A DNA stretch of 64,000 nucleotides from a bacterium (GTDB taxonomy: Bacteria > UBA8248): positions 3,296,001-3,360,000 of the forward strand of contig OY843592.1 in the NCBI GenBank assembly GCA_963692865.2, given 5' to 3'. Below the pieces are notes generated by a model. The model did no database searches. It was not told the origin of the DNA and saw nothing but the letters and a program-made list of their open reading frames with translations. Every line of letters begins with the position of its first letter. The stretch's first letter is position 1. The position numbers were made by a program, and so were the translations under genes. Below are positions 12,087 to 53,122 of this stretch, in pieces.

Positions 12087-12238
12087 CCTTTTTCCTCCAA
12101 GCCGAAAACCCTTCGTTTTTCAGTCATATCATCGTATTTTTCTGTCATCCTTAAAAACGCATCATATCAAATTCCGCTTCTCTTTGCGCGGCCAGGATGC
12201 TAGGCTCGCTTTTCTCCTTCATAAGCACGGGATTCACC

Positions 12239-13498
12239 ATGGGCATGACCCTGACGGAAAAAATCATGGCCAGAGCCTCCGGCAGGGACGAGTTGCGGGC
12301 CGGGGAGATCGTCTACCCGGAGGCCGATCTGGCGACGATTCACGACCTCTACGTCGTGGAAGCCGACCGCCAACTCGCCGAACTCGGCGTGGAGCGCCCC
12401 TGGGACCCGGAGCGGGTGTTCGTATGCTTCGATCACGACACGATTCCCCAGACCGTCGCGGTCGCGAATCGCGCCAAGCAGATAAGGGAGATCGTGAAAC
12501 GCTGGGGCGTCAAGCACTTTTTCGGTCCCGGCCGCGGGCAGGGTCACGTGTTCCCGATGGAAATCGGCCTTATCAAACCCGGCGCATGCGTCCTCGCCTA
12601 TGACATTCACGTCACGAACTACGGCGCGGTGGGTTGTCTCGGCTTGGCGCTCGTCTTCGAGTTCCCCGCCGTGCTCGCCATGGGGAGTCACTGGCTCAAG
12701 GCGCCGGAGACGATACGAATCGATATAAGCGGAAAACTCCAGCCGGGTGTGGGAATCCGCGACGCCGCCGCGCGCATCATTCACGAGATCGGCCCCGACG
12801 CCGCCGATTACCGCGTCTTTGAATACACCGGAGGGGCCCTCACCCATCTGGGGGTCGATGCGCGGGTGAAACTCTGCAACCTGCCGATAGAGATCGGGGC
12901 GAAAAGCGCCATCGTTCCAGCCGATGAGGTCGTGGCCGAATGGATGCGCGAGAGAAACATCGAGGGATTCGAGGCGATGCAGAGCGACCTTGACGCCGTA
13001 TTCGCGGAAACATACGGGTTCGACCTCTCCGAAATGGAACCCACCGTAGCGCTTCCTCCGAGACCCGAGAACGTGGCCCCGCTTGGTGAGGCCCTGGGCG
13101 TCCCGATCCACGCGGCGTATCTGGGTTCATGCGCGGCGGATCAGTATGAGGACATGGCCGAAGCAGCCGGGATTCTGCGCGGGAAAAGGCTGGCGCCGGG
13201 CGTGCGGATGATCGTGACGCCCGGCAGTCGGGAGGTGCTCGCCCGCTGCGTCGAGGATGGATTGATGGACGTTTTCTGCGAAGCGGGCGCCATGGTGGGC
13301 CCGCCCGGGTGCGGCCCCTGCGCCATCGGCAGGGGAGGCCCCCTGGCGGACGGGGAAACCTGCATCGCCACGGTGACGCGAAACGACGTGGGGAGGATGG
13401 GGAGCCGGAAAGCCCGAATCTATCTCGCGAGTGCGGCTACGGTGGCGGCTTCCGCCGTGAGGGGCGAGATAGCAGACCCCAGGGAATTTCTGGCTTGA
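12239..13498 (+). CDS. Aconitase family / isopropylmalate isomerase large-subunit-like protein
   Basis: MTLTEKI N-terminus, FDH, three Fe-S Cys (GSC; PGCGPC) and YLASA. Several substrate motifs are non-canonical. Confidence 0.85.
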   Translation: MGMTLTEKIMARASGRDELRAGEIVYPEADLATIHDLYVVEADRQLAELGVERPWDPERVFVCFDHDTIPQTVAVANRAKQIREIVKRWGVKHFFGPGRGQGHVFPMEIGLIKPGACVLAYDIHVTNYGAVGCLGLALVFEFPAVLAMGSHWLKAPETIRIDISGKLQPGVGIRDAAARIIHEIGPDAADYRVFEYTGGALTHLGVDARVKLCNLPIEIGAKSAIVPADEVVAEWMRERNIEGFEAMQSDLDAVFAETYGFDLSEMEPTVALPPRPENVAPLGEALGVPIHAAYLGSCAADQYEDMAEAAGILRGKRLAPGVRMIVTPGSREVLARCVEDGLMDVFCEAGAMVGPPGCGPCAIGRGGPLADGETCIATVTRNDVGRMGSRKARIYLASAATVAASAVRGEIADPREFLA

Positions 13499-13508
13499 GG
13501 AACTCACC

Positions 13509-14036
13509 TTGAACTGGACGATGCAGGGGCGCTGCTGGAAATTCGGAGACAACCTCTCTCTCGACGACGACATTCTCGAATTCGCAAAGGTCTTCGTGGG
13601 GGGCGTGCGCGTATCGGACCCCGAATACCTGAAACAACACGTCTTCACGAATCTTATCCCCGATTTTCCCGAGCGCGCGGAACCGGGCGACATCGTGGTG
13701 GCGGGAAAGCGGTTTGGACAGGGGAATCCCCACATATACGGCCTGCTGGGCATGGCGGGCTTAGGGCTGGGCCTCATCGCGGAGAGCGTTCCCCATTTCA
13801 CCTACCGGATGATCGTGGCGGCGGGGCTGCCCGCGCTTCCTTTCTTCACCGGTATCGGGGCGCATGTGGAAGATGGAGACGAGTTGCGCGTCGATTTCGA
13901 ATCCGGAGAGGTCGAGAACCTGAGTCGTGGCGTGCACTGGAAGTCGGAGCCTCTGCCCGATGCGCTGAGAGAGATCATCGAAACTGGCGGATTTCTCCCT
14001 GCCCTCAAAAAACGCCTCAATGCCTCTCTTTCATAA
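13509..14036 (+). CDS. Aconitase family small subunit (LeuD-like)
   Basis: GRCWKFGDN, GDIVVAGKRFG and IIETGG; adjacent to the large subunit. Confidence 0.82.
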   Translation: MNWTMQGRCWKFGDNLSLDDDILEFAKVFVGGVRVSDPEYLKQHVFTNLIPDFPERAEPGDIVVAGKRFGQGNPHIYGLLGMAGLGLGLIAESVPHFTYRMIVAAGLPALPFFTGIGAHVEDGDELRVDFESGEVENLSRGVHWKSEPLPDALREIIETGGFLPALKKRLNASLS

Positions 14037-14132
14037 GGCGAGCAACTTAAAGAGCCTCCTGCAAATATCCCCTTACGCGACTCTGCTTCTCGGATGGGTT
14101 TTTGAGATTTTTCCCCCAGTCCAAAAATTTTT

Positions 14133-14141
14133 TGCTATAAT
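14133..14141 (+). promoter_or_regulatory. Candidate extended -10 promoter for the Rieske-cytb-octaheme operon
   Basis: TGCTATAAT, a perfect TGnTATAAT, in an AT-rich stretch about 55 nt upstream of the Rieske ATG. No clear -35. Confidence 0.5.
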
Positions 14142-14194: not shown

Positions 14195-14650
14195 ATGGCG
14201 TCATCGGAAACAGAACCAGGACTTGAACGGCGAGGCTTCATCGCCACGCTGTGCATGGCCGGCGGCGTCATCGTAAGCTACGGCACGGCGGCCGTCTACG
14301 GACTGCGCTATCTCTTCGGGAGGCAGCTTCCCCCCCGCATGACGCAGGTGCTCGTCGGCTCTCTCAACGACATCCCCGACGGCGGCAGCATCCTCAGCCA
14401 GGATTTGAGCGGCAGGAAATTCCTGCTCGTGCGCGCGAATGATTCGGTGCGCGCGTTTTCGACCGCGTGCACGCACCTGGGATGCCAGGTGTATTGGCAG
14501 GGAGACAAAAAGGTTTTCTTTTGCCCTTGCCACAACGGTTTCTTCGACGCGGACGGAAAACCCACCGCGGGTCCCCCGCCGACTCCTCTCGCCCGGTACC
14601 CCGTGGAGGTGCGCGGGGCGAGCGTTTTCGTCACCATGCCCGAGGCCTGA
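14195..14650 (+). CDS. Rieske iron-sulfur subunit of a cytochrome bc-type complex
   Basis: Tat-like ERRGFI plus a TM segment; CTHLGC and CPCHNG boxes. Confidence 0.93.
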   Translation: MASSETEPGLERRGFIATLCMAGGVIVSYGTAAVYGLRYLFGRQLPPRMTQVLVGSLNDIPDGGSILSQDLSGRKFLLVRANDSVRAFSTACTHLGCQVYWQGDKKVFFCPCHNGFFDADGKPTAGPPPTPLARYPVEVRGASVFVTMPEA

Positions 14651-14653
14651 GCC

Positions 14654-15709
14654 ATGAACAGCCGCTTGCCGCATTGGGTGGAAGAACGGATTCCCTTCGA
14701 TTGGGACCACCTCAGACACATCACGAGCGAACCCATACCGCGCCACCTGAAAAAATGGTGGTTCTGCGTGGGCGGCACGCCGCTGTACCTGTTCTTCATC
14801 CAGATCGTCACAGGGATAGCCCTCACCTTCTACTACGTTCCCGAGCCGGGAAAGGCGTATGAATCGGTGCGCCACATCACCGAGGCCGTGCCCTTCGGCT
14901 GGTGGATTCGCGGGATACACCGATGGTCGGCGGAACTGATGGTGGTGACCGTCATCCTCCACATGATGCGGGTGTTCTTCACGGGCGCATACCGCAAGCC
15001 ACGCGAGATCAACTGGCTCATCGGCATGGGCCTCCTCATCACCGTGTTCACCTTCGGGTTCACGGGCTATTCCCTGATTTACAACCAGCTTTCCTACTGG
15101 GCGGCCGTGGTGGGCACGAACATCGCCGCGGCGGTGCCCGGCGTAGGGCCCTATCTGGCGGGCTTCATTCGCGGAGGTCCAGTCATCAGCGCGAACACGC
15201 TGACGCGCTTCTACGTGCTTCACATCGGAATCTTGCCGACCACCGCGTTCGCCCTGCTCGCCCTCCACATTTTCTTCATCCGCATCCACGGGGTGAGCGA
15301 GTTCATCGACCCCAAGGACGAGGAGGCGAAAAAAGACAGATTCTTCCCGTTTTTCCCGGACCATTTTCTGACCGAGGTGGCCCTGGGCGTTTTTCTCATC
15401 TTTCTGGTCAGCCAACTGGCCATCATCTTCCCCGCCCAGATGGGAGAGCCGGCGAACCCGGCGGTCACGCCCGAACACATCAAGCCGGAGTGGTATTTCT
15501 ACCCCGTTTTCCGCTGGCTGAAGCTGTTTTCCTTCGAGGCCGGCATCATCGGGGCGATTCTCGTCGTCATCCTCATGTTCGCCTGGCCGTGGGTGGACGC
15601 CGCCATCGAACGCCGCTGGCCCGGGCGTGACATCAGCGTGTACGCCGGCATCGTCGCCGTCGTAACGATGACGATTTTCCTCATCATCGAGGGTTTGTCG
15701 GGACACTAG
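14654..15709 (+). CDS. Cytochrome b (b6-type N-domain fused to subunit-IV-like domain)
   Basis: Four heme His (IHRW, LHMMR, VLHI, ALHI), Qo motif IKPEWYF and FCVGG (heme ci Cys position). Confidence 0.93.
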   Translation: MNSRLPHWVEERIPFDWDHLRHITSEPIPRHLKKWWFCVGGTPLYLFFIQIVTGIALTFYYVPEPGKAYESVRHITEAVPFGWWIRGIHRWSAELMVVTVILHMMRVFFTGAYRKPREINWLIGMGLLITVFTFGFTGYSLIYNQLSYWAAVVGTNIAAAVPGVGPYLAGFIRGGPVISANTLTRFYVLHIGILPTTAFALLALHIFFIRIHGVSEFIDPKDEEAKKDRFFPFFPDHFLTEVALGVFLIFLVSQLAIIFPAQMGEPANPAVTPEHIKPEWYFYPVFRWLKLFSFEAGIIGAILVVILMFAWPWVDAAIERRWPGRDISVYAGIVAVVTMTIFLIIEGLSGH

Positions 15710-15736
15710 ATTCGAGACGCCGGAAGGGAGGGAGCC

Positions 15737-17077
15737 ATGCAGCTGCAAGCCAAGCAATGGATAGTCGCTATCTTGAGTCTGTTCTTTCTCGGCTCCCTGA
15801 TCACCGTCGGCCTCATCGAGAGCGAGCGCCTCGTGCCCGAACGGGAGAAAAAAGCCGTCGTCACGGCCAAAAACGAAGGGTGCGTGAACTGCCACACGGA
15901 GAAATCGCCGGGCATCGTCGCCCAGTGGAAAGACAGCCGCCACGCGCAAATCGGCGTGGGCTGCCTGGACTGCCACGAAGCCGAGAAGGGCGACAAGGAC
16001 GCCTGGCAGCACGAGGGGTCCCTGGTGGCCGTCATCGTATCGCCCAAGGATTGCGCGAAGTGCCACGTCCAGCAAGCGGAGGAGTTCACGGCCAGCCACC
16101 ACGCCAAGGCGGCGCAGTTCATCGGCAGCCTGGACAACTTCCTGGGCGTCGTCGTCGAGGGCGTGCCGGCGGCGGTGGGCGGATGCCAGAAATGCCACGG
16201 CTCCACCGTGAAGGTGCTCGCGAACGGGAGGCTCGACCCCGCCACCTGGCCCAACACGGGCATGGGGCGCATCAACCCCGACGGCAGCAACGGCGCTTGC
16301 TCGGCCTGCCATGCGCGCCACCAGTTCTCTCCCGCGCAGTCGCGGCGGCCCGAGAACTGCGGAAAATGCCACATGGGGCCGGATCACCCCCAAATCGAGA
16401 TATACGAGGAATCCAAGCACGGAATCGTCTTCCACGCGCGCGAGAAGGAGATGAACCTCGACAGCAAGAGCTGGGTGGTCGGCAAGGACTACACGGCGGC
16501 GCCCACCTGCGCGACCTGCCACATGAGCGCGGCGCCGAAGCTGCCGACCACGCACGACGTAGGCAAGCGCATCAGCTGGACGCTCAGGCCCGTCATCTCC
16601 AAGAAACTCGAGAACTGGGAGCAGAAACGCGACGACATGAAGAAGGTGTGCGTCGCCTGCCACGCGCCCTCGTTCGTGAACGCCTTCTACACGCAATACG
16701 ACAACGTTATCGACCTGTATAACGAGAAATTCGCGCATCCGGCGCAGAACATCATGAACGAGCTCAGAAAACAGAAGAAGCTCACCTCGGCGCCGTTTGA
16801 CGAGAAGATCGAGTGGACCTTCTTCGAGCTGTGGCACCACGAGGGCCGACGCGCGCGGATGGGCGCGTCCATGCAGGGGCCCGACTTCACGCAGTGGCAC
16901 GGGTTCTACGAAGTCGCCAAGCACTTTTATTTCAAGTTCTTACCCGAAGCCGAGGAGCTCCTCCCCGGCGTGAGCGAGCAATTCGTCACGGGCAGGCACC
17001 ACGCCTGGCGCAAGGGCATGAGCAAGGCGCAGATCCAGCAGATGCTCGACTTTTACGAAACGCGGTACGGGAAGTAA
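15737..17077 (+). CDS. Membrane-anchored octaheme cytochrome c, hydroxylamine oxidoreductase (HAO) family
   Basis: Eight CxxCH motifs (CVNCH, CLDCH, CAKCH, CQKCH, CSACH, CGKCH, CATCH, CVACH), HMGPDHPQIEIYEESKHG, APTCATCHM and an N-terminal hydrophobic helix. Confidence 0.9.
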   Translation: MQLQAKQWIVAILSLFFLGSLITVGLIESERLVPEREKKAVVTAKNEGCVNCHTEKSPGIVAQWKDSRHAQIGVGCLDCHEAEKGDKDAWQHEGSLVAVIVSPKDCAKCHVQQAEEFTASHHAKAAQFIGSLDNFLGVVVEGVPAAVGGCQKCHGSTVKVLANGRLDPATWPNTGMGRINPDGSNGACSACHARHQFSPAQSRRPENCGKCHMGPDHPQIEIYEESKHGIVFHAREKEMNLDSKSWVVGKDYTAAPTCATCHMSAAPKLPTTHDVGKRISWTLRPVISKKLENWEQKRDDMKKVCVACHAPSFVNAFYTQYDNVIDLYNEKFAHPAQNIMNELRKQKKLTSAPFDEKIEWTFFELWHHEGRRARMGASMQGPDFTQWHGFYEVAKHFYFKFLPEAEELLPGVSEQFVTGRHHAWRKGMSKAQIQQMLDFYETRYGK

Positions 17078-17509
17078 AAACAACGGGATAAGAACGATAA
17101 CCTCGTCTTTTTCTTTCCTGTTCGGGGCGCATTTGCCCGCATTTGCAATGCCCGCGAGGGGGCCGAGATACGCTATGGTGCGTCCGCGCGGGAAATCGTT
17201 ACGCGGCGGTTTTCCTTCCATTTATTTATCGAAAAACATCGTGAATTTATCTGAATTTATACATATTTATTCGATATTTATCGAATTATCCGGGAGCCTG
17301 AAGATTCCGCGCCGTTTCCACCTTCTCTCGAACCGCTCGAAACGGATGCTCCCCCGGCGCGCGGGCATCCGGCGAAACGCCACGGAACGACCCTTCCCGC
17401 CCCGGCTCCTTCCCTCTAAAAAAACTACCCTTGCCCGTTGCGCTATGCTAACTTGCTTTTCCGGGCAGCCGGTTGTATTCGAACATCCCGTTCAGGGAGG
17501 AATTAAGCC

Positions 17510-18240
17510 ATGAGCAGCCATCCTTTCGACAACTAGTTCCACGTCACCCCCGAGCACAAGGAGCAATTCCGGCGCGACGGCTTCGTCAAGCTCGAAGGGT
17601 TCTACAACCCTGAAGTGGTCGAGGCGCTGCTTGCGCGCGTCGAAGCCGAAATGGACCGGGGGGTGGCCGGCGGTATAACGGGCGATGAAATGTTCAACCG
17701 GGCGAAGTATGACTTCGCAGGCGAAAGAACGGAAGTCTATGAACTGCTGGAGCGGCCTTACCTGCGAACGGCGCTTACGGATCTGGTCGAATGCGACCTC
17801 TTTCTGACCTTCGAGCAGTGCTTTGAAGTCGAAAAGAACGTCAGCAAGGGATTCCCCTGGCACGTCGGCGCGCAGAGCTTCGGCTTTCAACCCGCTGAGG
17901 AATTCGCGTGCACGCTGTGGGCGCCGCTGCATCCCGTGGACACGAAGGGCCAGCGGGGCGGGATGGCTTATGTCCCCGACCGCGTCATATCGGGCGATTT
18001 CATCTTCCGCCAGATCGAGCCGGCGGTCGTCTCCACGCTGGAGGCCAAGGAGCAAGCCGGCGTCAGGACGAACGTAGATGAATACTTCGCCATGCGTTCG
18101 GGGATCCTCAATTCGCCGACCATGTGCGAGATACTCGAGAACCACCAGGTCGAAGACGATTTCAAGCCCGGCGACGCGCTCCTGTTCAACAAAATGGTCG
18201 TCCACCGGAGCATAATGCTCGGCGAGGGCGCGCTTCCCAG
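17510..18240 (+). pseudogene. Phytanoyl-CoA dioxygenase-like (2OG-Fe(II)) gene with an in-frame TAG and a disrupted 3' end
   Basis: RBS AGGGAGG, ATG 17510, TAG at 17534-17536, then in-frame EHKEQFRRDGFVKL...WHVG...LWAPL...PGDALLF...VHRS. The C-terminus runs into repeat-derived sequence. Confidence 0.7.
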
Positions 18241-18343
18241 GCTGTTTGAAGATCGCCCGCGCAAACGCGTGAGGGCGCGCGCCGCAGGCCCGGGCGGGCG
18301 CAACTGCGATGAGCTTCCGAGCGGATTCCCGCACCCCCTTGAG

Positions 18344-18536
18344 GGGGTTGTTCAAAAAGCCCCCTCCGCCTCACCCTGAGTAGCGGCGAAGCCGCGTATC
18401 GAAGGGCGAAATTCGCGTCCCGCCGGTTGGATGCGTTCCCCCATCCTTCGATACGGCGCTTGCGCGCCTACTCGGGATGAGGAAAGAGGCGTCGGCGGTT
18501 TGCGGGGATCGAAGACGGGGGTTTTTCAACAGCCCC
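18344..18536. mobile_element. MITE-like element carrying a GAGTAG-hairpin-GTATCGAAGG inverted pair
   Basis: GGGGTTGTTCAAAAA ... TTTTTCAACAGCCCC. Internal CTGAGTAGCGGCGAAGCCGCGTATCGAAGG and inverted CCTTCGATACGGCGCTTGCGCGCCTACTC. An extra right end lies at 18577-18591. Confidence 0.75.
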
Positions 18537-18714
18537 TGACAAGGGAGGTCGGGAGGGTTGCTCTCTTGACAAAGGCTTTTTCAACAAGCCCGTATGCGGC
18601 CCCTGCGGGAGAATCCAGACACCCAAGCGACGATCCAAAAAGGCGCCGGGCGTGATAAGGTGAGACCATCGAAACCCGAGAAAAATCCGTGAACACCCAC
18701 CCGGAGAACGCCAC

Positions 18715-19743
18715 ATGAACGAGATGGACGAATTCGAATTTTTTCTGGAGAAACCCTGGTCGGACGGCCTCCCCGTGGTGACGCCCACCGAAGAGCGCGT
18801 CGAGCGCATGCTGGCGGGAACGTCGAGATCGCCCGACGAGGCCGTGACCCCCGTTCCCCCTCTGGACGAGGTCGCCACCGTTCGAGACATCGCCGCCCAC
18901 GCCGTCATGGCCGGATGCAAACCCGAGTACCTCCCCGTCGTCATCGCGGCTCTGGAACTCATCGTGGAGGAGCCGCTCAACCTGCGCGGCGTGCAGGCCA
19001 CCATGCACAGCGTCGCGCCCCTCCTCATCCTGAACGGCCCATATGCGAAGAAGATAGGCGTCACGGGCGGGCAGGGATGCTTCGGCCCCGGCTTTCGGGC
19101 GAACGCCACCATCGGCCGCGCCGTCCGCCTGCTTCTGCTCAACCTGGGCGGCGGAATCGCGCGCGTCGCGTGCATGAGCATCTACAGCCAGCCCTCGCGC
19201 TTCACGTTCTGCGTCGCGGAGAACGAGGAGGAAAGCCCCTGGGAGTCGCTCGCCGCATCGCGCGGCTATGGTGAAGATGAAGACGTGATCACCGCCGTCA
19301 TGGTGGAAAACCCCCACATCGTCTTCAACGACGTGGACCGCGACCCCGAGCGCCTGCTCGTCTCCCACATGGACAACATGGCGGCGATGGGTTCGTGGCC
19401 CATCTGGGTGAGGTCGGACACCGTGCTCGTCCTCTCCCCCGAGCACGCGCGCCTGTGCGCGGGAGCCGGCTTCTCGCGCGCGGACGTGCACGCGTACGTC
19501 TCGGAGAACGCGGGGCGCAGGGTGGGCGAACTCAAGCGCGGCGGCCCCTGGCGGGAGGACAAGCCGAACGGGCGGTGGGAGTACCCGGTGGACAGGGAGG
19601 ATGACGACTTCTTCATCCGCGTCGTGAACGAACCCGAAGACCTGCACCTCATCGTCGCGGGCGGCGAGGGGCCCCTCGGCGCGGTGATGCCCGGCTGGAA
19701 CGGCGCCAGCCGCGCCGTGCACCGGGCGTACGAGGCGACGTGA
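18715..19743 (+). CDS. Conserved hypothetical protein of the WxDGLPxxxPT family (usually found beside or fused to UGSC-type (seleno)proteins)
   Basis: WSDGLPVVTPTEERVERML, AVMAGCKPEYLPVV, RANATIGRAVRL and AENEEESPW motifs. Confidence 0.7.
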   Translation: MNEMDEFEFFLEKPWSDGLPVVTPTEERVERMLAGTSRSPDEAVTPVPPLDEVATVRDIAAHAVMAGCKPEYLPVVIAALELIVEEPLNLRGVQATMHSVAPLLILNGPYAKKIGVTGGQGCFGPGFRANATIGRAVRLLLLNLGGGIARVACMSIYSQPSRFTFCVAENEEESPWESLAASRGYGEDEDVITAVMVENPHIVFNDVDRDPERLLVSHMDNMAAMGSWPIWVRSDTVLVLSPEHARLCAGAGFSRADVHAYVSENAGRRVGELKRGGPWREDKPNGRWEYPVDREDDDFFIRVVNEPEDLHLIVAGGEGPLGAVMPGWNGASRAVHRAYEAT

Positions 19744-19793
19744 TGATCCGGTAAGGGCCGCATAAATACGGTATGGACCCACTCCTCCCCCGA

Positions 19794-20245
19794 GGGGTTG
19801 TTGAAAAACCCTATCCGCCTCATCCTGAGTAGCGGCGAAGCCGCGTATCGAAGGTCAATCGCAACCAATGCGGGAGCGAATGCCTCTCGCCTCTGCGCGA
19901 GGCATTCGACCCTCCTCGCCCTTCGATATAAACGCTCCTTTCTCGGGGCTGTTGAAAAACCCGGAGAGAGACAATTTGTTTGTAGGTGACAACCCCTCCT
20001 CGGGGTTGTCCCACACATATCATGCGACCCTGATTTTCGCCTCCGCAAGGCGGGCCGCATGATATGTCAGACATATATGTCTGACCTACAAAAACCGTTC
20101 CTCCCCGGTCGCGTAAAACACTCGCTCATCAGGACTTTTTCAACAGCCCATTCTCAGTCGCGTTTGACCTTCGGCGGCTGCTCAGGGTGAGGAAAAGGAC
20201 GTTGGCGGCTTGCCGGGGCCGCAGATGGGGTTATTCAACAACCCC
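19794..20245. mobile_element. Nested MITE-like element: inner element 19945-20149 inside an outer element homologous to 18344-18536
   Basis: Ends occur in the order L(19794) L(19945) R(20149) R(20245). The outer interior matches the 18344 element at both ends; the inner element carries GTAG-type hairpins. Confidence 0.72.
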
Positions 20246-20264
20246 TTTTAGGGTATCGCTTTTA

Positions 20265-20737
20265 CCCCCCTGACAAGGGGGACAGGGGGGGCTTTTTCGA
20301 CTGTTCCTTGCGGGCCGGTCGGGGTTCCCCCGTAGTGGGCCGTTCACGAAAACAACCCACTACAAAACCATCGCCCCCTTTTGCCTATGCTCGTCATTCC
20401 GGCGAAAGCCGGAATCCATTTGCGGACGCGGGTGAATGAACGACGGCGTTTCATTCCCCGACGATGCGCGGGAATCCTGACGAAAGGCGTAAAAATGGAT
20501 TCCGGCTTTCGCCGGAATGACGGTGGTTTTCCCGCATCAAGGAGACTTTTCAACAACCCCTTGAGGGTCGGGCGGATACACAGGCCCGCCGCTGCAAAGC
20601 CCCAAAAATCGTAATGAACCCGTAGGGGAGTACCCGCGTGTCCTCCCCCCCACGTCGTTCTGGTCGTGAGCCTGGTGTAGAGGCCGGAATGACGGCGGTG
20701 GTCAATTCCGATCGGGGAGGGGTTTTTCAACAACCCC
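20265..20737. repeat. Mosaic repeat island: CCCCCTGACAAGGGGG unit, REP-pair module, GTAG hairpin and two right-end TIRs
   Basis: Module 20392-20522 is nearly identical to 2116-2253. TTTTCAACAACCCC occurs at 20547-20560 and 20723-20737. Confidence 0.78.
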
Positions 20738-50600: not shown

Positions 50601-50794
50601 GAGGTTCTCCAGATGAGAAAAAATTGAACCCGGAAGGTGGAACAATGGCATATTCTCGCCTTAAAATCACCCCGTCACCGCTTTATGGCGCGCGAAACGC
50701 CGGGACGGGGGGACTTGGTTCCCACACGTGATATACTGCGCAGAATGCACGCCAAATCATGAGTCCGACCCGGATACGTGGAGGAAGTCATCTG

Positions 50795-53122
50795 ATGCCC
50801 GGCGGGCAAGAAGGAATCGAAAAACGTCACCACAGTTCCCATTGGGGGGCGTTCCGGGCGCACGTGCGCGATGGCCGCATGGTGGGTTTCGAGCCGTTCG
50901 CCAAGGACCCGGCGCCCTCGCCCATCCTGGAATCGATCCAGGACGCCATATACGACGAAACACGCATCTCCCAACCGATGATCCGAGCGGGCTGGCTCGA
51001 AGGCGGCCCCGGAAATAACTCCGAAGGACGCGGCGGCGAACCCTTCGTGCCCGTCTCCTGGGAGACGGCCCTCGGAATGGTCGCCGACGAAGTCATGCGC
51101 GTCAAAACCGAATACGGCAACGAGTCCATTTTCGCGGGTTCATACGGCTGGGCGAGCGCGGGCCGCTTCCACCATGCGAACACGCTGCTGAAGAGATTCT
51201 TCAACTGCTACGGCGGCTTCACGGATCAGGTGACCACCTACAGCATCGCCGCCGGGTACGTCATCCTTCCACACGTCATGGGGGATTTTATCTCCTGCGC
51301 CGGACACATCACGACTTGGGACAGCATCGCGCAAGACTCAGGGCTGTTCGTCATGTTCGGCGGCGTTCCTGTCAAGAACGCGCAGGTGGCTGCGGGAGGC
51401 GCGGGAGAACACTCCCTGGAGCTATGGCTCGAAAGGGCGAAGGCGAACGGGGTGGAATTCGTGAACGTAAGCCCCCTGAAAGACGATGCGCCAGATTTCC
51501 TGGACGCGCAGTGGCTCGCCGTGCGCCCGAATACGGACGTGGCGCTCATGCTCGGCCTCGCCCATACGCTTCGGGAGGAGAACCTGCACGATACGGATTT
51601 CCTCGCGCGCTATTGCGTGGGTTTCGAGAAGTTCGAAGCCTATCTGACGGGCGAAACCGACGGCCGGCCCAAGAACGCGGACTGGGCGGCCCCCATCACG
51701 GGAATCGGGGCGGACGTCATCCGAACCCTCGCCCGGCGCATGGCGGGCGCGCGAACCATGCTCAACACGAACTGGTCGCTCCAGCGCGCGGACCACGGCG
51801 AGCAGACGTTCTGGATGACCATCACGCTCGCCGCCATGCTCGGTCAAATCGGCCTGCCCGGCGGCGGCTTCGGCTTCGGCTACGGGAGCATGGGCGGACG
51901 CGGCGAGCCGCGCGAGAACATCCCTTCCGTCAGAATGGGGTTCGGGAAAAACCCGACCGGCAGCTTCATCCCCGTCGCCCGCATCGCGGACATGATGCTC
52001 CACCCGGGCGGGGAATACGACTTCAACGGCGAGCGCCGCACCTACCCGGACATCCGCATGGTGTACTGGTGCGGCGGCAATCCCTTCCACCACCACCAGG
52101 ATTTGAACCGGTTGGTGAAGGCGTGGCGGCGGCCCGAGACCATCGTCGTCCACGACCCCTGGTGGACGTCCACGGCGCGCCATGCGGACATCGTGCTGCC
52201 CGCCACCACGACGCTCGAGCGCAACGACATCGGTTCGAGTTCGAGAGACCGCTTCATCCTCGCCATGCACAAGGTGATCGAGCCGGTCGGAGAGGCCCGG
52301 CACGATTTCGACATCTTCGCCGACTTGGCCGAACGCCTCGGCTTTAAGAGCGCCTTCACCGAAGACCGCGGCGAGACGGAATGGCTGAGACACATCTACG
52401 AGGAGGCGCGCCAGAAGGCCGCCTCTCAGGGCGTGGTCCTCGATACGTTCGAGCATTTCTGGGAGACGGGACACACGGAAGTCGCTACGCCTGAGACGCC
52501 GCACGTCTATCTGGCCGATTTCCGGGAAGACCCGGAGAACAAGCCGCTCAAGACGCCCTCCGGGAAAATCGAGATATATTCGGAGCGCATCGAGAGCTTC
52601 GGGTACGCTGATTGTCCGCCCCACCCCGCCTGGCTCGAACCCATGGAGTGGCTGGGGAGCGGACTGGCGGAGAAATTCCCGCTGCACATGATCTCGAACC
52701 AGCCGCGCACGAGACTCCACGGCCAGATGGACAGCGGCTCCACCAGCGTCAAGAGCAAGATTCAAGGCAGGGAGCCGGTGTGGATTCACCCCGCAGACGC
52801 CGCAGCCAGAGGAATCGCAGGCGGAGACGTCGTTCGAATCTTCAATGAGCGGGGCGCGATTCTGGCGGGCGCCGTCATCACGGACGGGCTGCTGCCCGGC
52901 GTCATCCAGCTCTCCACGGGCGCGTGGTACGACCCGCAGGAACCGGGGAGAATCGGCGCGCTCGACAAGCACGGAAACCCCAACGTCCTGACGCCCGACA
53001 AGGGAACCTCGAGCCTCGGCCAGGGCCCCAGCGCGCACAGCGCGCTGGTGGAGATGGAGCGCTACGAGGAAGAGCTTCCCGAAGTCACGGCGTTTCAACC
53101 CCCATCCTTCATCGAGGCGTAA
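50795..53122 (+). CDS. Molybdopterin oxidoreductase of the DMSO/TMAO/biotin-sulfoxide reductase clade, no Tat signal (BisC-like)
   Basis: SHWG, GSYGWASAGRFHHA, TYS (Ser Mo ligand), QRADHGEQ, GGNPFHHHQD, TPSGKIE and RLHGQ. Confidence 0.9.
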   Translation: MPGGQEGIEKRHHSSHWGAFRAHVRDGRMVGFEPFAKDPAPSPILESIQDAIYDETRISQPMIRAGWLEGGPGNNSEGRGGEPFVPVSWETALGMVADEVMRVKTEYGNESIFAGSYGWASAGRFHHANTLLKRFFNCYGGFTDQVTTYSIAAGYVILPHVMGDFISCAGHITTWDSIAQDSGLFVMFGGVPVKNAQVAAGGAGEHSLELWLERAKANGVEFVNVSPLKDDAPDFLDAQWLAVRPNTDVALMLGLAHTLREENLHDTDFLARYCVGFEKFEAYLTGETDGRPKNADWAAPITGIGADVIRTLARRMAGARTMLNTNWSLQRADHGEQTFWMTITLAAMLGQIGLPGGGFGFGYGSMGGRGEPRENIPSVRMGFGKNPTGSFIPVARIADMMLHPGGEYDFNGERRTYPDIRMVYWCGGNPFHHHQDLNRLVKAWRRPETIVVHDPWWTSTARHADIVLPATTTLERNDIGSSSRDRFILAMHKVIEPVGEARHDFDIFADLAERLGFKSAFTEDRGETEWLRHIYEEARQKAASQGVVLDTFEHFWETGHTEVATPETPHVYLADFREDPENKPLKTPSGKIEIYSERIESFGYADCPPHPAWLEPMEWLGSGLAEKFPLHMISNQPRTRLHGQMDSGSTSVKSKIQGREPVWIHPADAAARGIAGGDVVRIFNERGAILAGAVITDGLLPGVIQLSTGAWYDPQEPGRIGALDKHGNPNVLTPDKGTSSLGQGPSAHSALVEMERYEEELPEVTAFQPPSFIEA

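Follow-up and report, generated by a model that had tools for sequence, protein, structure and literature searches.

In a 64,000-nucleotide stretch of bacterial DNA (the window), three tightly spaced open reading frames (ORFs) on the forward strand, at positions 14195-17077, encode a Rieske protein, a cytochrome b and an octaheme cytochrome c of the HAO family. We consider it probable that the three proteins form one membrane complex, in which a quinol-oxidizing Rieske/cytochrome b pair is joined to a membrane-anchored octaheme that reduces nitrite. Judged from the sequences, the most likely function would be quinol-dependent reduction of nitrite or hydroxylamine.

The Rieske [2Fe-2S] subunit (14195-14650, 151 residues) matches Pfam family PF00355 (1.1e-13) and has one transmembrane (TM) helix. 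After a gap of 3 nucleotides follows a cytochrome b of the fused b6 plus subunit IV type (14654-15709, 351 residues; PF00033, 1.7e-52; PF13631; PF00032, 2.3e-12), and after a further 27 nucleotides the octaheme gene (15737-17077, 446 residues; PF13447, 4.9e-29, 101.9 bits against a cut-off of 21.9). Neither the operon nor its immediate surroundings contain another c-type cytochrome gene; the third redox gene of the operon is the octaheme, not a cytochrome c1/f or a mono- or diheme cytochrome c. A first-pass annotation written from the sequence alone had described this compact operon of a Tat-type Rieske protein, a cytochrome b with PEWY and FCxGG motifs and an octaheme, and all of its ORFs and motifs were recovered where it had placed them.

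The octaheme has exactly eight CxxCH motifs (starting at C49, C76, C106, C150, C188, C208, C258 and C305) and 16 cysteines in total; it has no CxxCK motif. Its best match in the PDB was 4qo5 (IhOCC), with 7.4e-45 by phmmer and 3.3e-67 with a profile of 30 sequences. In the same searches, nitrifier and anammox HAO/HDH structures came next at 1e-18 to 1e-32, and NrfA and TvNiR were marginal. Comparison with a comammox HAO by hhalign gave a probability of 99.8 (E 1.9e-30). An AlphaFold2 (AF2) model of the monomer (mean pLDDT 73.4, pTM 0.63) returned the HAO/IhOCC fold in Foldseek, with probability 1.00 to 4qo5, 6h5l, 1fgj, 4n4j and 6hif (E 4.5e-15 to 7.8e-9). The closest structure was again 4qo5 (E 4.5e-15, TMq 0.59, about 24% identity), while the reductive Kustc0458 scored 2.8e-10, N. 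europaea HAO 1.3e-9 and HAO/HDH chains in general 1e-9 to 1e-10. The octaheme is 55% identical to the OCC protein of Nitrospira moscoviensis over residues 2-441.

The octaheme is thus a member of the IhOCC/"ONR" (OCC) branch of the HAO family, which lacks the cross-linking Tyr. IhOCC has been placed in one clade with HAO/HDH and is described in the cited text as lacking P460 and termed an octaheme nitrite reductase (PMC9250108). Two other assignments were rejected. A Thioalkalivibrio-type octaheme nitrite reductase (ONR/TvNiR) or NrfA does not fit, given the lack of CxxCK, a PF02335 score of 16.6 bits against a cut-off of 24.1 and a Foldseek E of 0.025 to TvNiR (3sxq; TMq 0.27); the label "ONR" given to the Nitrospira protein is thus no reference to the TvNiR family. 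The hydrazine dehydrogenase model (NCBIfam hydrazine_HDH, NF052343) scored 96.6 bits against a cut-off of 900. The family itself is large: among representatives of 50%-identity clusters, 1990 matched at E <=0.001 and 297 at E <=1e-30; among 90% clusters all 8000 scored candidates were significant, and the best 120 were 58-89% identical, with names from many phyla. A scan of contigs matched at least 590 stretches, at least 584 of which encode a relative of the octaheme. The best 80 served as our set of loci, and conservation was read across 80 sequences (the window plus 79 loci).

The first-pass annotation had pointed to the loop GPDFTQWHG of this 8xCxxCH protein and had put Trp, by eye, at the position of the Tyr that forms the P460 cross-link in oxidative HAO, where this Tyr is bound to the catalytic heme of an adjacent subunit. 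The loop is there (residues 381-389; 16877-16903, forward strand), between AF2 helices 357-378 and 384-408, and corresponds to the loop of HAO in which the cross-linking Tyr sits. Alignments by phmmer, by the 30-sequence profile and by hhalign ended before it (query residues 333-367), so two comammox-type HAO genes from Nitrospira relatives and MAFFT were used to place that Tyr. One of the two could be aligned over its full length with the N. europaea precursor 6m0p, in which Tyr491 lies in GGWTYTEGW; we take this residue to be the cross-linking Tyr467 of the mature enzyme, from a 24-residue offset read in the 6m0p alignment. A MAFFT L-INS-i alignment of 66 sequences (the window, the two HAOs and a further 63, made up of family members and more distant representatives) set D-F-T-Q-W-H-G-F of the window opposite G-Y-T-Y-T-V-G-W of HAO. 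In this alignment Gln386 stands opposite the cross-link Tyr and is followed by Trp387; without gaps, the register would instead set Trp387 at that position. Across the 80 sequences, position 386 is Gln in 55, Trp in 15 and His in 10, and position 387 is Trp in all 80; Tyr never occurs at either. Two residues before 386, position 384 is Tyr in 66 and Phe in 14, with Phe in the window. By sequence alignment, then, the octaheme has no cross-link Tyr in either register: the absence of Tyr stands as first described, but the Trp is off by one in the MAFFT register, which places Gln386 at the cross-link position of Nitrosomonas HAO.

The remaining active-site positions are conserved without exception. 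The fourth heme motif, CQKCH (C150-H154; 16184-16198), is the counterpart of HAO heme 4, with hhalign setting GCQKCH against the fourth CxxCH of comammox HAO, and is invariant in 80/80 sequences; heme 4 is the catalytic heme of HAO. Asp216-His217 (16382-16387) lies opposite Asp267-His268 of N. europaea HAO, and Arg284 (16586-16588) opposite Tyr334, in a profile alignment to 4fas_A (printed chain numbers). These three HAO residues are distal catalytic residues, and D216, H217 and R284 are each found in 80/80 sequences. An invariant Arg in the pocket would fit an anionic substrate such as nitrite. HAOs without the cross-link that have been assayed are described as reductases of nitrite, nitric oxide (NO) and hydroxylamine with negligible oxidation activity in the cited work (PMC8042395). 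Together with the lack of Tyr at positions 386 and 387, this assigns the octaheme to the reductive type, in agreement with the first-pass annotation.

The octaheme begins with a membrane anchor, MQLQAKQWIVAILSLFFLGSLITVGLIESERLV (15737-15835, forward strand), hydrophobic at about residues 7-27 and helical at residues 3-32 in the AF2 model. The helix is followed by charged residues, with no small-x-small site. Across phyla, octahemes linked to Rieske/cytochrome b genes start in the same way, with charged residues after a long hydrophobic helix (window, ...LSLFFLGSLITVGLIESER; several phyla, ...LIVVAWVEGGKQR; Nitrospira, ...LVLFLALTGVGYIQVEER), and most copies without these genes carry a signal peptide that ends in an A-x-A-type site. 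The hydrophobicity scores of the two groups overlap (1.7-3.1 for linked copies, up to 2.9 for others) and some ORF starts are miscalled; the start position of the tblastn match likewise failed to separate anchors from signal peptides. The call between anchor and signal peptide is hence a qualitative one, made from the sequence after the helix and from a model of the complex.

For this model, cytochrome b, Rieske and octaheme were folded as three chains with an own alignment each. The complex scored 0.72, and the best of three controls 0.20; runs agreed on at least 92% of contacts, and the partners had a pLDDT of at least 85. The mark set for this score is reached by 116 of 157 solved complexes and by 2 of 215 mismatched pairs, counts that hold only roughly here because author-made alignments and three chains were used. 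In the model, the octaheme helix (residues 2-44) packs on cytochrome b (residues 77-84, 235-257) as well as on the TM helix of the Rieske protein (13-35), and the octaheme region of hemes 2 and 3 (71-78, 107-111) touches the soluble domain of the Rieske protein. The modeled Rieske/cytochrome b part resembles solved b6f/bc complexes. The model supports an octaheme that is bound as a subunit of the Rieske/cytochrome b complex, and gene order, the uncleaved-looking anchor and the modeled interface all fit such a role. As the first-pass annotation had it, the gene stands where one for cytochrome c1/f would be. We know of no solved Rieske/cytochrome b-octaheme complex.

The two partner subunits carry the motifs of Rieske/cytochrome b (bc1/b6f-type) complexes. 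The Rieske protein has the Tat motif RR (residues 12-13 in LERRGFIATL; 14228-14233) and the cluster motifs CTHLGC (residues 92-97; 14468-14485) and CPCH (residues 110-113; 14522-14533), all on the forward strand. The RR pair, C92, C97, C110, C112 and H113 are invariant in an alignment of 19 triad-linked Rieske proteins. Against the NCBIfam b6f/bc Rieske models the protein stayed below all cut-offs. The cytochrome b has Cys38 in FCVGG (14762-14776), which we take to be the heme ci-binding Cys of b6-type cytochromes, and PEWY at residues 278-281 (15485-15496). Its heme ligands on helices B and D, His89/His103 and His190/His205, are separated by 13 and 14 residues, the b6 pattern with 14 on helix D. 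Across 47 aligned sequences, all four ligands as well as P278 and W280 are invariant. The best NCBIfam models, ExtP cytochrome b and cytochrome b6, were both below cut-off.

Two designs of these partners were distinguished. Cytochromes b of the window type (47-85% identical) have the FCxGG Cys and accompany a canonical Rieske protein. Those of the Nitrospira type (35-41% identical to that of the window) lack this Cys, and their Rieske protein reads CTDLGC, with Asp at the expected cluster-ligating His. This variant was found in eight of the 19 aligned Rieske proteins (loci L003, L008, L040, L041, L042, L044, L047 and L049), L003 and L008 being among those with the Nitrospira-type cytochrome b; the window has the canonical CTHLGC.

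A tblastn search with the Rieske and cytochrome b proteins of the window found both genes immediately before the octaheme in 20 of the 80 loci, a synteny that fits a joint complex. Two more loci (L005, L064) end in a cytochrome b fragment at the contig edge; eight of the remaining 58 offer too little upstream sequence for a call (under about 1.1 kb), and an opposite-strand Rieske-like match downstream at L056 was left out of the count. As labeled, the 20 linked loci come from at least eight phyla (Nitrospirota, Planctomycetota, Myxococcota, Acidobacteriota, Bacteroidota, Cloacimonadota, Thermodesulfobacteriota and a bin labeled Rickettsiales). They include Nitrospira moscoviensis NSP M-1 (L041), with 55% identity for the octaheme, 39% for cytochrome b and 38% for the Rieske protein; cytochrome b proteins named Calditrichaeota were 55-56% identical to that of the window.

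Loci without Rieske/cytochrome b genes have other partners. A tetraheme gene lies directly downstream of the octaheme in 11 of them, among them Agarivorans, Photobacterium, Neiella and Aliagarivorans, and six of these genes match NapC/NirT (PF03264). Pfam analysis of 56 neighboring ORFs (same strand, at least 100 residues, within 260 nucleotides) further gave NarJ-like proteins (two loci), molybdopterin oxidoreductases (two), Hcp (one) and a Crp-type regulator (one). Some other loci hold an octaheme without any heme partner. Genes of Alginate_exp-family outer-membrane porins lie directly beside a soluble octaheme at L007, L009, L072 and L080 (4 of the 56 neighbor ORFs); such porins could possibly conduct nitrite or nitrate.

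A quick maximum-likelihood tree was built from the core region, without the N-terminus, of 78 octahemes and two HAO outgroup sequences. L071, which lacks a full ORF, was left out, as were L013 and L056, which have fewer than eight heme motifs. The octaheme of the window groups with IhOCC/Nitrospira OCC-type proteins, far from the HAO outgroup. The tree requires at least five changes between Rieske/cytochrome b-linked and other states, with four contig-truncated loci set aside, and the linked copies form a basal grade. As the outgroup branch is very long (2.66), rooting and basal position are only a hint. A wider reading, which we put forward as tentative and on balance doubtful, is that the anchored, Rieske/cytochrome b-bound form is ancestral and the soluble NapC-linked or orphan forms derived, that the complex is a true Q-cycle-coupled, energy-conserving nitrite reductase, and that the window represents a second design (His-Rieske with the heme ci Cys) next to the Asp-Rieske, Cys-less design of Nitrospira.

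For the complex of the window we propose the following path. The Rieske/cytochrome b pair would oxidize quinol at the Qo site, and the Rieske cluster would pass electrons to the heme chain of the octaheme, which would be held on the complex by its own N-terminal TM helix in replacement of cytochrome c1 or f. Nitrite would then be reduced at the five-coordinate heme 4 on the outer face of the membrane; hydroxylamine or NO are probably reduced as well. The product would most likely be ammonium, otherwise NO. The reaction would also contribute to the proton-motive force, provided that a Q cycle runs through the low-potential branch (bL, bH and probably heme ci on Cys38).

Several observations weigh against this proposal. 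In the complex model, the octaheme is contacted by Rieske residues 48-56, 69-71 and 140-150, none of which belongs to the cluster loops, and the model therefore holds no electron-transfer-competent pose. The AF2 monomer is poor around hemes 4-5 (pLDDT below 50 at residues 122-198), which we attribute to the absence of hemes from the model. The trio has no flanking nitrogen-assimilation or nitrate-reductase genes here, unlike in Nitrospira, and among the seven molybdoenzyme ORFs scored in the whole genome none was above cut-off for NapA, NarG or NasA; with no recognized nitrate reductase, the cell would depend on external nitrite. The distribution of the trio is patchy, with strong orthologs in 5 of 19 genomes of the same genus (its own included) and in 2 of 7 of the same class, where a third is fragmented. 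Evidence for its transcription is weak and comes from the contigs of a relative: six contigs in one metatranscriptome library are 90-95% alike, one of them (1482 nucleotides) spanning the cytochrome b/octaheme junction and another diverging right after the octaheme stop codon. This library may contain DNA, the two-gene contig is no proof of one transcript, and the uncovered Rieske part is uninformative. Sequence likewise does not distinguish ammonium from NO as the product. Finally, the cited literature reports no purification or assay of such a Rieske/cytochrome b-octaheme complex, and the Nitrospira OCC is described as lacking biochemical characterization (PMC6311188).

The lack of a recognizable nitrate reductase as an internal source of nitrite would also suit a complex that uses quinol to reduce another periplasmic acceptor, either hydroxylamine or NO in detoxification or a sulfur oxyanion (sulfite, tetrathionate). 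Related HAOs without the cross-link are reported to reduce NO and hydroxylamine as well as nitrite (PMC8042395), one soluble ortholog adjoins Hcp, a hydroxylamine/NO-related enzyme, and sulfite and tetrathionate reductases are listed among the octaheme relatives (PMC9250108). For the sulfur variant, the same source places MccA and OTR in other clades with a different catalytic heme position (PMC9250108); both were weak or absent as fold matches (4rkm, E 0.5), and the gene contexts that we found are nitrogen-related, not sulfur-related. Taken as a whole, we regard another acceptor than nitrite as rather unlikely.

The absence of nitrogen genes beside the trio would also suit an octaheme that only transfers electrons, a many-heme replacement of cytochrome c1/f in a conventional complex III supplying an oxidase or soluble carriers. 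A similar octaheme is treated as the only candidate cytochrome c subunit of a bc-like operon in the Nitrospina gracilis paper (PMC3578206), and multiheme c subunits have been proposed for early bc complexes (Dibrova 2013, cited in PMC5317091). A pure wire, however, would have no need of the distal Asp-His pair and the active-site Arg that are invariant in 80/80 sequences. Moreover, NapC-type, NarJ-like, molybdopterin and Hcp genes are neighbors of soluble orthologs, a further Rieske/b6/subunit IV cluster and an ACIII-like protein are present in the genome, and the Nitrospira trio is reported to be expressed with nitrite as sole nitrogen source (PMC6606698). We hold a role in electron transfer only to be decidedly unlikely. 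An oxidative enzyme that passes electrons from hydroxylamine or hydrazine to the quinone pool would share superfamily, heme order and Asp-His pair with HAO but is very improbable, given that none of the 80 sequences has a Tyr at the cross-link position, that cross-link-less HAOs are reported to have negligible oxidation activity (PMC8042395), that running Rieske/cytochrome b in reverse from a c-type donor to quinone is uphill, and that no ammonia monooxygenase context was seen near the trio.

The genome from which the window comes is 97% complete by marker genes and offers other routes for quinol oxidation. A second, split Rieske/cytochrome b cluster lies outside the window (C1:2759045-2761387, reverse strand), with a Rieske protein of 231 residues, a cytochrome b6 of 262 and a subunit IV-like protein of 259; its cytochrome b6 comes close to the ExtP model (278 against 290 bits), and no c-type cytochrome gene was adjacent to it among the ORFs tested. 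About 7 kb away, a 977-residue protein with eight CxxCH motifs (C1:2748821-2751754, forward strand) combines domains of class I cytochrome c with FixO-like and cbb3 subunit III-like ones. Genome-wide, just three ORFs have at least five CxxCH motifs. The genome further encodes one heme-copper oxidase and one ACIII-like protein. With this second cluster, the ACIII-like protein and the oxidase, the trio would be an extra respiratory branch and not the sole quinol oxidase.

As to other enzymes of nitrogen metabolism, no PF02335 (NrfA) match was found in the genome (NirK, NirS and NosZ were not searched for), and one NirA/sulfite-reductase-like protein stayed below its cut-offs. One of the seven molybdoenzyme ORFs is a formate dehydrogenase. 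Another of the seven, a 787-residue molybdoenzyme in the window (50759-53122, forward strand), exceeds the cut-off for S/N-oxide reductases of the BisC family (1082 bits; cut-off 1017.55). The small contig C3 holds a truncated near-copy of it (643 residues), perhaps a duplicate or an artifact of assembly or binning.

The flanks of the trio are carbon-metabolism genes by Pfam, aconitase-like and acyl-CoA synthetase. Directly upstream, at 12197-14036 on the forward strand, lie an aconitase-family large subunit (433 residues) and an ORF of small-subunit size (175 residues, without Pfam match). In the closest relative (L001) the trio is enclosed by the acyl-CoA synthetase gene and the downstream gene that also border it in the window, and both the aconitase-like pair and the stretch 17100-20700 are missing. 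We therefore consider the pair a local insertion and not part of the module. The trio itself, common to both genomes among unrelated and variable flanking genes, is the conserved unit. A promoter scan that required a -35 match found no sigma-70-like site upstream of the Rieske gene. The 158-nucleotide gap before the operon contains an extended -10-like element, TGCTATAAT, at about 14130-14140 (forward strand, approximate coordinates), and the region upstream of the trio, including this element, is not conserved in L001. A terminator-like hairpin with an 11-pair stem followed by T's lies at 17190-17215 (forward strand), 113 nucleotides past the octaheme stop codon; it comes from a consensus scan only, as one of nine sites found where 4.4 were expected, and is weak evidence. 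A 907-residue antisense frame over almost the whole trio (14201-16924, reverse strand) was rejected as a gene; it is an Arg/Gly-rich shadow frame, common in DNA of 60% G+C.

When nitrite is reduced to ammonium, nitrogen stays in the ecosystem. The electrons for the known periplasmic enzymes, NrfA and epsilonHao, come from NapC/NrfH-type quinol dehydrogenases, which are generally regarded as non-electrogenic. Mounted on a Rieske/cytochrome b complex, a nitrite reductase could gain for the step from nitrite to ammonium the proton translocation of a Q cycle. The octaheme family is large and conserved across many phyla, yet no Rieske/cytochrome b-bound member is biochemically characterized in the cited literature. 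The module itself has been published in Nitrospira (PMC6606698, PMC6311188, PMC12342949), Nitrospina gracilis (PMC3578206) and Caldithrix abyssi (PMC5317091), so on these accounts a claim of novelty does not hold; our interpretation is the best available and matches the hypothesis published for the same module. The window adds no new idea but a lineage, a clean three-gene example and computed support for a bound octaheme subunit. Beyond the cited papers go the co-occurrence of anchor and Rieske/cytochrome b genes across phyla, a complex model that passes its controls and the two Rieske/cytochrome b designs.

The closest comparison is with Nitrospira. In N. moscoviensis and N. japonica, OCC/"ONR" has two Rieske/cytochrome b genes upstream (Koch 2015 and Ushiki 2018, as cited in PMC6606698, PMC6311188, PMC5767232 and PMC12342949). 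The three genes are reported at matching expression levels on nitrite as sole nitrogen source, and a link of assimilatory nitrite reduction to the quinone pool has been proposed (PMC6606698, PMC6311188, PMC12342949). Gene order, octaheme anchor, lack of the cross-link Tyr and the proposed quinol-linked reduction of nitrite to ammonium are shared with the window. The Nitrospira cytochrome b without the FCxGG Cys and the CTDLGC Rieske protein differ from their canonical counterparts here, and the Nitrospira trio is described within a nitrogen-assimilation cluster (PMC5767232), whereas that of the window stands between carbon-metabolism genes. According to a 2025 survey of Nitrospirales, most ONR genes lie beside petBC and a quarter have NapC instead (PMC12342949), the same alternation that we find across phyla.

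For Nitrospina gracilis, a bc-like operon with "an atypical octaheme cytochrome c" is described and said to be conserved in Kuenenia and Methylomirabilis (PMC3578206). In Caldithrix abyssi, Rieske/cytochrome b genes (Cabys_2558/2557) lie beside a Tyr-less HAO-type "epsilonHao" (Cabys_2556) that is proposed to be a nitrite reductase, and the paper raises electrogenic operation through Rieske/cytochrome b (PMC5317091). There the module is attached to napMADGH and the octaheme is drawn as soluble and periplasmic (PMC5317091); the two octahemes are likened by description only. The first-pass annotation had named anammox bacteria as the place of such clusters. An HAO-like octaheme does occur there, in a b6-type Rieske/cytochrome b complex (Kuste4569-4574) proposed to reduce nitrite (PMC12954380), but the clusters are in print for Nitrospira, Nitrospina and Caldithrix as well, and the anammox complex is described with extra parts: a split b6/subunit IV, an additional hexa- or octaheme cytochrome and a putative NAD(P) oxidoreductase, with NO as the proposed product (PMC12954380). 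The module of the window has three genes only, without an anammox-type NAD(P) oxidoreductase or extra multiheme subunit.

NapC/NrfH-type modules (NrfHA, epsilonHao of Campylobacterota, and ONR with NapC in Nitrospira lineage IV as surveyed in PMC12342949) perform the same task, bringing quinol electrons to a periplasmic multiheme nitrite reductase with eight or five hemes. They differ in using a tetraheme quinol dehydrogenase, the partner at 11 of the 80 ortholog loci, and an octaheme with a cleavable-looking signal peptide. IhOCC of Ignicoccus hospitalis (4qo5) shares eight hemes in HAO order, the lack of P460 and membrane association with the octaheme of the window; it is archaeal, has a one-residue insertion in the loop and is about 24% identical in Foldseek. 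N. europaea HAO (1fgj, 4fas, 6m0p) has the same heme order, fold (Foldseek E 1.3e-9) and distal Asp-His pair. Compared with it, the octaheme of the window is about 20% identical and some 100 residues shorter, has Gln386 for the cross-link Tyr and Arg284 for Tyr334, and carries its membrane segment at the N-terminus, whereas that of N. europaea HAO is C-terminal.

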